Positions 43,098 through 43,525 are shown, counted from the first letter of the stretch. The stretch is 64,000 bases of DNA from Escherichia coli (GCF_046105845.1 NZ_CP151004.1), one strand, 5' to 3'. A program made the numbers and translations. Notes: generated from the letters alone by a model not told the origin.

Positions 43098-43525
43098 TGC
43101 TATCAATTTCCTGCCTGTTTATACCCGGTCATTGCAAGGTGAAAACCCTGGTTACCGACGTCTTTAGATAAATCTTACGGTATAAATAGCACTTTTGCCT
43201 GATTTGAAATTGATACCTTTTTAATGGTCACCTGGATAAAAATAATTCATTGATATTCAAATTAATTTTCTACAGGAATGCAGAGGCGGCGGGAAGATAT
43301 GCCCTTAATGCCACTGAAAAACCACATAATCTGTACAGCAATAAAAGTCACGGCCTAATCTGGCTAACAAACAATCAATTGTGATATAGTTCACAAAATT
43401 AATGAAACAAACAGAGTGTTTCATTTTTGTGTCCTGCAAGCCCCGCGATAGCCAGAGTGTACCACGCCTCCCGTGAACAACGCCGCGCTGTCCAGGGCAT
43501 CGGCTCTTTTCAGAGGAATTGTTTG

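Follow-up and report, generated by a model that had tools for sequence, protein, structure and literature searches.

The described elements that come closest to the one considered here are the operators of the IclR-family regulators KdgR and PlaR, found at kdgK, kdgT, eda, kduD and yiaK, in which a left half-site AATRAAAYR and a right half-site YRTTTYA lie at or just 3' of the start of transcription. The consensus of the KdgR box we take to be AATRAAAYRNYRTTTYA, and it was checked against the Escherichia coli K-12 operators of kdgK (AATGGAACACTGTTTTA) and kdgT (AATAAAACAGCGTTTCA). PlaR (YiaJ) has the box ATnTGAAACnnnGTTCAnTT and KdgR a similar one (Shimada et al. 2019, PMC6958661), and eda, kdgT, kdgK and kduD, all with a KdgR box, are derepressed when KdgR is absent (PMC6958661). 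The inverted repeat in the leader of E. coli yjcB has half-sites that equal the consensus, occupies the corresponding place relative to its transcription start and, like the kdgT operator, keeps company with a CRP site; a full canonical box is present at yjcB in 65 of the 81 sequences compared. Where it departs from the known operators is that in E. coli 6 bp too many separate the half-sites and the proximal left one has been lost, that there is an additional distal left half-site which they do not possess, and that yjcB, unlike their targets, is not a sugar-acid catabolic gene.

Stem-loops at the 5' end of an mRNA impede its 5'-end-dependent decay by RppH and RNase E. The yjcB stem resembles the stabilizing stem-loops of the ompA type in lying 3 nt from the 5' end and in being kept in the MFE and centroid folds of the whole 5' UTR and in the RNAalifold consensus, whereas it is much weaker, A/U-rich, and conserved mainly by sequence rather than by covariation. 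With intrinsic terminators and leader attenuators it shares an inverted repeat, a 7-nt loop and an immediate T run, but its stem is far less stable than that of every true terminator in the window (the whole stretch of E. coli DNA that was analysed, 64,000 nt, GCF_046105845.1, NZ_CP151004.1) and, compared with leader attenuators, it has no alternative structure and a T tract that is not conserved. Common to yjcB and the CRP-CytR operators (deoP2, udp, cdd, cytR) are a CRP site and an inverted pair of octamers about 26 bp from its centre. However, CytR octamers need TGCAA and TTGCA where the yjcB arms read TGAAA and TTTCA, their spacer is at most 3 or 10–13 nt while that at yjcB is 9 nt, and CRP in those systems is an activator countered by CytR whereas at yjcB it overlaps the −10 element and is a repressor.

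The gene order in the window is soxR, soxS, pdeC (− strand), yjcB (+ strand), ssb (− strand), uvrA, and the locus was matched in 5425 of 5426 complete genomes, with 100% identity to NZ_CP151026.1. In K-12 MG1655 the element is identical with zero indels from there to yjcB and, because this alignment is gap-free, a window position w corresponds to K-12 coordinate 4275041 + (43526 − w). YjcB, an uncharacterized inner-membrane protein strongly induced by acid and by antibiotics (its gene ranks among the most strongly induced at pH 4.4), is found solely in Enterobacteriaceae. RefSeq annotates no feature between pdeC and yjcB. It was here that a sequence-only reading had remarked on a palindrome followed by TTTTGTG, resembling an intrinsic terminator at a place where no gene ends, and had offered for it the termination of a short unannotated transcript, the attenuation of yjcB, or protein binding. 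The repeat and its tail are present exactly as described and the distances given for them are right, the yjcB ATG being 102 nt 3' and that of pdeC 308 nt away on the other strand. In window coordinates, or relative to the yjcB start where so indicated, the features of the region are:

43094, − strand: start ATG of pdeC (the K-12 start).
43339..43353, + strand: MarA/SoxS-type marbox gcaataaaagtcacg, centre at about −52, 5' of the yjcB promoter.
−40..−29 of the yjcB promoter: invariant block CTGG(C/T)GAA(T/C)AAA.
43380..43395: CRP site TGTGA-tatagt-TCACA, perfect consensus, centre at −10.5 relative to the yjcB transcription start.
43382..43390, + strand: extended −10 element TGaTATAGT (TG at 43382-43383, TATAGT at 43385-43390).
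43398, + strand: yjcB transcription start site (TSS), an A; primary Cappable-seq start at K-12 4275169 (−) (PMC12987492).
43398..43525, + strand: yjcB 5' UTR of 128 nt, from the mapped start to the ATG.
43402..43424, + strand: palindrome ATGAAACA / AACAGAG / TGTTTCAT, read from the sequence.
43402..43409: core of the 5' arm, ATGAAACA.
43401..43409, + strand: the 5' arm as distal left half-site (L1), AATGAAACA, 9/9 to AATRAAAYR.
43410..43416, + strand: loop AACAGAG, read from the sequence; in most other genera the site of the proximal left half-site (L2, GAAACA).
43417..43424: core of the 3' arm, TGTTTCAT.
43417..43425, + strand: the 3' arm as right half-site (R), TGTTTCATT, YRTTTYA plus palindromic TT.
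43425..43431, + strand: T tract TTTTGTG, its first T able to pair with A43401.
43526..43807, + strand: yjcB coding sequence, 93 aa, PF15940 family.
43813..43837, yjcB (+ strand) and ssb (− strand): intrinsic terminator shared by the two genes, from terminator scan, fold and term-seq; the positive control.

With A43401–T43425 as a ninth base pair, there are 2 G-C pairs among the 8-9 of the stem, which begins after 3 unpaired nucleotides (AUU) when transcription is taken to start at 43398. The + strand RNA folds at −6.4 to −6.9 kcal/mol (z = −1.45, with 18 of 200 shuffles equally stable) and the − strand RNA at −8.9 kcal/mol (z = −2.1); the positive control gave −17.8 kcal/mol and z = −5.7. Perfect 8-bp inverted repeats with a loop of 3–10, followed by at least 4 T in 6, numbered 1.2 ± 1.5 in the dinucleotide-shuffled window and 25 in the real one, the latter being nested counts that amount to about 13 sites. 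The other hairpin-plus-T sites of the window fold at −9.7 to −18.9 kcal/mol and that of the yjcB leader, at −5.4 to −6.4 kcal/mol, is the weakest of them. Judged from one sequence by itself, the palindrome is not beyond chance; the case for its non-randomness is that of conservation, both arms recurring in place in 81 Enterobacteriaceae sequences.

To which transcript does the hairpin belong? The start at 43398 is one of the strongest to emerge in the presence of novobiocin, rifampicin and tetracycline (PMC12987492), in a single reanalysed dataset in which it was called solely under antibiotic treatment. Given that start, the hairpin lies within the yjcB 5' UTR, at +4..+28 of the mRNA, and the palindrome marks where the yjcB transcription unit begins and not where some other unit stops. 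The TATAGT hexamer ends 7 nt 5' of it, and SELEX with the RNA polymerase sigma-70 holoenzyme led to a yjcB promoter prediction of CTAACA-15-TATAGT (Shimada et al. 2014). A sigma-70 promoter scan around the hairpin found no site of at least 9/12, because the −35 element is poor and the promoter is of the extended −10 type. The hexamer is also the 6-bp spacer of the CRP site, an overlap that implies repression by occlusion. The CRP site region GTGATAnAGTTCACA is found in 81/81 orthologous sequences and none of the 16 columns of the site varies within Escherichia; PhyloScan has yjcB in the top group of its CRP predictions, crp deletion raises yjcB expression, and the 14 genes of a crp-KO iModulon include yjcB. 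The marbox is, letter for letter, the MarA ChIP-seq site given for yjcB<>yjcC, and yjcB is a SoxS ChIP-exo target (PMC5684230). From 5' to 3' the order is therefore MarA/SoxS box, −40..−29 block, CRP site around the extended −10 element, TSS, and KdgR-type element. For pdeC, Shimada et al. predicted a promoter that adjoins the start of that gene, some 250 bp from the hairpin.

As a terminator the repeat does not impress. The terminator scan of the window detected the true yjcB/ssb terminator and did not call the leader hairpin, and a d'Aubenton-Carafa-type score was −35.6 for the hairpin, the true yjcB terminator having +17.7. The stable G+C-rich stem expected of an intrinsic terminator is missing, while a U tract is there, the E. 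coli stem of 8 bp being succeeded directly by TTTTTGTG. A T-rich tail, with 5 T or more within 8 nt 3' of the stem, is found in only 21 of the 81 sequences; the CATT with which the tract starts is part of the conserved motif and the tract itself, on the alignment, is outside the conserved element. In the term-seq tables of Adams et al. 2021 (LB at OD 0.4, LB at OD 2.0, and M63 glucose) 3' ends at K-12 4274757/8 mark the ssb/yjcB terminator. None falls at K-12 4275000-4275199 on either strand, the outcome of the 3'-end check that the sequence-only reading had proposed; it is a weak negative, since the yjcB promoter is nearly silent in these conditions and such libraries might fail to capture an RNA as short as about 33 nt. 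Neither single-sequence nor alignment folds of the UTR contain an antiterminator competing for either arm. Termination at the hairpin would be leaky at most. What had looked like a terminator where no gene ends is a weak stem directly 3' of the yjcB promoter, and the notion of a short unannotated transcript ended by it has little to stand on, with the repeat inside the yjcB unit and a lineage-specific T tract. For annotation of the window this removes a false lead, that of an orphan terminator or an sRNA concealed in the region.

The comparative set consisted of 80 orthologous yjcB loci, one genome per species, which with the E. coli window make 81 sequences. GTTTC of the 3' arm is invariant in all 81, 20–24 nt 3' of TCACA. 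In the 5' arm T, G, A, A and C are each at least 90% conserved and the fourth base is variable (TGAAAC, TGTAAC, TGAGAC, TGCAAC), its partner T being constant. Salmonella, Citrobacter, Enterobacter, Klebsiella, Raoultella and most genera have a second GAAACA within what in E. coli is the 'loop', one base before TGTTTC, an example of the double half-site being ACAGAAACAGTGTTTCA. The 14-nt core RAAAYRNYRTTTYA, scored out of 13, is matched 13/13 by 47 of the 81 sequences, 12/13 by 18 and 11/13 or less by 16; those with 12/13 or better are counted as having the canonical box, and all Escherichia fall in the low group, with 9-11/13. When both strands of the loci (about 260 kb) were searched for the exact core, it occurred once per locus in 47 of the 80 and invariably at the yjcB site; such a search also recovers the kdgT operator. 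Positions 9 and 11 of the box agree with the consensus throughout, being R and Y without exception; a 1-nt loop does not allow the two to pair, an argument for recognition of the DNA by a protein in those species. If transcription begins at the same place in the relatives, as their shared −10 element suggests, their operator is at about +10..+26. The cross-species prediction, probably of a new member of the KdgR/PlaR regulon, is that yjcB belongs to that regulon in most Enterobacteriaceae and that the input was lost in Escherichia.

In E. coli itself the half-sites are 7 nt apart instead of 1, with 9 bases between RAAAY and RTTTY where the canonical gap is 3; the proximal left half-site reads AACAG and the perfect one lies 6 bp out of place. 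Its position, +4..+28, is within the promoter or early transcribed region where operators of this kind occur, but with a core score of 11/13 it is not a canonical 17-bp operator. The exact core has no match in the 64-kb E. coli window, and the nine one-mismatch matches there (4.9 expected) include none at yjcB. Among published sources, the text of the PlaR gSELEX paper (PMC6958661) does not name yjcB, and the IclR-family comparative supplements do not mention it. The kdgR-deletion iModulon, which reflects a 36-kb deletion that includes kdgR, captured kdgK, kdgT, kduI and kduD and not yjcB; this absence counts for little, CRP keeping the promoter shut and activation of the MarA/SoxS type being required as well. 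In the papers searched that mention yjcB, no link to KdgR or PlaR was found. The earlier suggestion of a protein-binding palindrome was therefore well aimed as to origin, with KdgR/PlaR-type half-sites here and the canonical box in most relatives, and falls short at the spacing in E. coli, which is non-canonical.

The fortunes of the RNA hairpin vary among the same relatives. It reaches −5 kcal/mol or lower in 43 of the 81 sequences, is strong in Kosakonia and Phytobacter (−9 to −12.5 kcal/mol), and is nearly lost in the Citrobacter freundii and Enterobacter/Lelliottia clades (−1 to −3.6 kcal/mol) owing to a central U.U mismatch; U.U or C.U replaces this central pair, 6/23, in 30 of the 66 distinct sequences, chiefly in the clades of Citrobacter freundii and Enterobacter. 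Covariation scores 0.102, where shuffled alignments give 0.088 and 14 of 500 reach 0.102, with 67.6% of cells paired. Covariation is best at pair 10/19 (26 A-U, 10 G-C, 12 G-U), and at core pairs 3-9 G:T mismatches outnumber A:C by 12 to 1. Such covariation points to an RNA stem on the yjcB strand in a way that is suggestive, not compelling. The distal half-site is conserved even in clades that combine a broken RNA stem with a canonical operator, a pattern for which an RNA hairpin does not account, nor does one dimer operator. Some Kosakonia lineages have, independently, the same 9-nt arrangement as E. coli.

Closer to home, nine Escherichia sequences (E. coli phylogroups, E. albertii, E. whittamii and cryptic clades) have variable columns in 0/8 of the 5' arm, 2/8 of the 3' arm, 5/7 of the loop, 4/7 of the T tract and 31/94 of the other UTR, though with few sequences the contrast between arms and UTR (2/16 vs 31/94) is statistically weak. 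Of 5393 E. coli records, 3782 have the 55-mer exactly as in K-12. A common variant, that of the B2 strains LF82, N24 and YP3, is changed only at A43401 in the outermost pair; PEC403 has A to T at 43423, which breaks the right arm, and EC09 a 3-nt deletion between the TSS and the stem.

The E. coli element is an ordinary weak hairpin of operator ancestry. How it came to be so, and what maintains it, can be proposed with less assurance, and the reading that we favour, while stopping short of calling it probable, is that of a rewired operator remnant which is now mainly the 5'-terminal RNA stem-loop of yjcB mRNA. The ancestral element would have been a KdgR/PlaR-type operator just 3' of the yjcB start, to which a further left half-site was added distally. 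The canonical operator (GAAACAnTGTTTC) is still there in most Enterobacteriaceae, formed by the right arm and the second left half-site 1 nt away. In Escherichia the proximal half-site has mutated away, leaving the distal left and right half-sites, which are too distant for a canonical dimer site, and the element would no longer act as the ancestral KdgR-type operator. Its arms may persist by pairing in the RNA, as a 9-bp A/U-rich stem-loop 3 nt from the 5' end; by analogy with stem-loops of the ompA type, we infer that this could shield the end from RppH/RNase E-dependent decay. The U run would be a recent, unconstrained Escherichia feature, capable at most of leaky promoter-proximal termination. 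If all this is true, yjcB is a natural case of operator decay, and its operator ancestry might aid finding the function of YjcB.

How final was the loss of the operator? KdgR, PlaR or some other protein (a tetramer, for instance) might bind both half-sites in E. coli despite the 6 extra bp, and the site, at +5..+27, would then block RNA polymerase together with CRP at −10.5. We consider such a live operator unlikely, even though both E. coli half-sites match the consensus perfectly and stay constant across Escherichia while the spacer drifts, the distal one is kept in all genera including those with a broken stem, the distance from promoter to right half-site is fixed at 20-24 nt, and Kosakonia arrived at the 9-nt arrangement independently. 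The half-site centres are 15 bp apart where 9 is usual, and therefore on opposite faces of the helix, and the operators of kdgK and kdgT function with no extra upstream half-site; the core score of 11/13 with no one-mismatch match at yjcB, the silence of the gSELEX text, and the absence of yjcB from the genes derepressed by kdgR deletion all tell against it too. To be doubted in similar measure is the opposite extreme, a functionless decaying relic whose arms persist in E. coli through short divergence and an A/T-rich mutational bias. The loss of the proximal half-site, the hypervariable loop, natural variants that break stem or half-site, the statistical weakness of the contrast between arms and background, and the z of −0.33 for the fold of the whole UTR are all as a relic would have them. 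A relic would nevertheless hardly be expected to keep its 5' arm unchanged in nine Escherichia sequences among which a third of the other UTR positions vary, or an identical 55-mer in most E. coli records with the common B2 variant touching the outermost pair only, or to have both arms retained in distant genera that likewise lost the proximal half-site. Somewhat less likely again is that, thanks to the additional upstream copy of the left half-site, both functions are served by the same bases, as a KdgR/PlaR-type repressor site in DNA and as a 5'-terminal hairpin in RNA. Escherichia and some Kosakonia would on that account have kept the RNA hairpin, in places with an attenuating U tract, and Enterobacter and the Citrobacter freundii group the operator, and yjcB, were it so, would be jointly controlled by CRP, MarA/SoxS and a sugar-acid repressor.

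The remaining explanations have the hairpin stop transcription, or give it a different binding protein. That it is a promoter-proximal intrinsic attenuator, the hairpin and UUUUUGUG halting some yjcB transcripts at about +33..+36, seems to us improbable. Position is in its favour, as the sequence-only reading had supposed, the hairpin being in the 5' UTR with 5 U directly 3'; some other lineages have a much stronger hairpin with T-rich sequence 3' of it (−10.1 kcal/mol followed by TTTTGG in L030, −8.5 kcal/mol followed by CCTTTTT in L042, −11.7 kcal/mol followed by TTTGTTGTG in L045); and at pH 4.4 the ribosome footprints of yjcB rise more than its mRNA, which makes control at the level of the leader conceivable. 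Against this, the thermodynamics are weak, with just two G-C pairs and with A-U pairs adjoining the U tract; the scan and the score cited above were both unfavourable, the T tract is absent from most genera and variable at 4/7 columns within Escherichia, and no antiterminator in the folds or 3' end in the term-seq data came to light. Far less credible than any of these is that the repeat terminates a separate short transcript or sRNA on either strand, or that it is a CytR operator beside the adjacent CRP site. A hairpin and a T run are available on both strands, that of the − strand being followed by TAATTTTG, but the sole mapped start within reach is that of yjcB, 4 nt 5', and there is no promoter-like site nearby and no 3' end on either strand; an Rfam search at E-values up to 10 gave no match overlapping 43380-43440. 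For CytR, each arm matches its octamer (AATGCAAC and GTTGCATT) at 7/8, and the centre of the pair is 25.5 bp from that of the CRP site; however, neither arm has the G/C at the centre of the octamer, the right arm being GTTTCA and never GTTGCA in 81/81 sequences. With an invariant T where G is required, a sequence that suits KdgR does not suit CytR, and the CytR operator was rejected.

Several further candidates were considered and set aside. A small ORF of 24 aa on the + strand, from the ATG in the palindrome, has no Shine-Dalgarno sequence and in many relatives reads ATG-TAA; one of 39-44 aa on the − strand crosses the invariant CRP site and has lost its AGGA in K-12, and the differences in spacer length between species would break its frame. 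Comparison of the arms by eye with regulator motifs found sequence and spacing at odds with FNR, Cra, ArgR, MetR, PurR, OmpR and PhoP, and likewise with ArcA, NsrR, Zur, EvgA, sigma-32 and sigma-28. A 7-nt match of RprA to UGUUUCA is no more than chance would supply. The idea that the 5' arm pairs with the region of the start codon, where GTTTCATG recurs in many species, founders on inconsistent complementarity, and the fold of the UTR retains the 5' hairpin instead. The UTR also includes a conserved long-range helix, in which GAUAGC (43448-43453) is paired with GCUGUC (43487-43492).

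Repression of yjcB by CRP through occlusion is implied by the geometry of a perfect CRP consensus over the yjcB promoter, centred at -10.5 relative to the yjcB transcription start, and published crp-deletion data are in agreement with such repression. The features surrounding the hairpin at 43402-43424, whose arms are KdgR/PlaR-type half-sites, are as follows.

43360-43371: conserved block CTGGCTAACAAA, at about -40 to -29, with a MarA/SoxS box on one side and the CRP/-10 element on the other
43380-43395: CRP site, perfect consensus TGTGATATAGTTCACA, with its 6-bp spacer being the yjcB -10 hexamer
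43446-43457: conserved yjcB 5' UTR block CGATAGCCAGAG
43485-43499: conserved yjcB 5' UTR block GCGCTGTCCAGGGCA
43813-43837: bidirectional terminator common to the convergent yjcB and ssb

Across 81 Enterobacteriaceae sequences (80 orthologous loci and the window) the CRP consensus does not change. The block upstream of it is also strongly conserved, its consensus across L003-L081 of these loci being CTGG(C/T)GAA(T/C)AAA, and on comparison with the -35 hexamer and recognisable motifs it matched none. Upstream of K-12 kdgT (L083, 11512-11568) there is a CRP-like site, TGTGATCAATTTCAAA, ~30 bp ahead of the KdgR box, and therefore the coupling of a CRP site with a KdgR-type box is a recurring arrangement.

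Natural variation among E. coli strains reaches the element itself. In PEC403 (L085) an A to T change at the position of 43423 converts GTTTCA to GTTTCT and so disrupts both the stem and the half-site, while EC09 (L087) has lost 3 nt between the transcription start and the stem, and B2 strains (L084, L086 and L088) have A to C at 43401, the outermost nucleotide of the 5' arm.

In published ribosome profiling yjcB (43526-43807) ranks with the genes most strongly induced at pH 4.4, and since the rise in footprints (log2 7.7) exceeds that in mRNA (log2 5.9), there is a hint of additional translational or leader-level control. Where the 5' UTR is long, a helix is predicted between its two conserved blocks, in which GAUAGC pairs with GCUGUC and GCC with GGC; Enterobacter and Lelliottia are without the entire paired segment and have a UTR of only ~60 nt. 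At the start codon of yjcB many of L003-L081 have (T/G)GTTTCATG, in which the right-arm motif GTTTCAT appears again 8 nt before the start, the E. coli sequence at that position being TGTTTGATG. Consistent complementarity between this start-codon motif and the 5' arm was looked for in L003-L081 and none was found; the repeat may simply be a T-rich spacer.

At the shared terminator, ssb 3' ends have been mapped by term-seq (K-12 4274757/8), and the yjcB-ssb gap is a described integration hotspot, carrying in some strains an 18-kb defence island (Detocs, dGTPase).

As to annotation, the mechanical ORF of pdeC starts with TTG at 43106 (531 aa) and the K-12 annotation with ATG at 43094 (528 aa). 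L002 (NZ_JAUFQN010000013.1) is a 9.5-kb contig filed under Flavobacterium paronense CECT 8460. Its YjcB match is 100%, and its upstream region shows the K-12 base where K-12 and the window differ; the contig almost certainly represents contamination of that assembly by E. coli.
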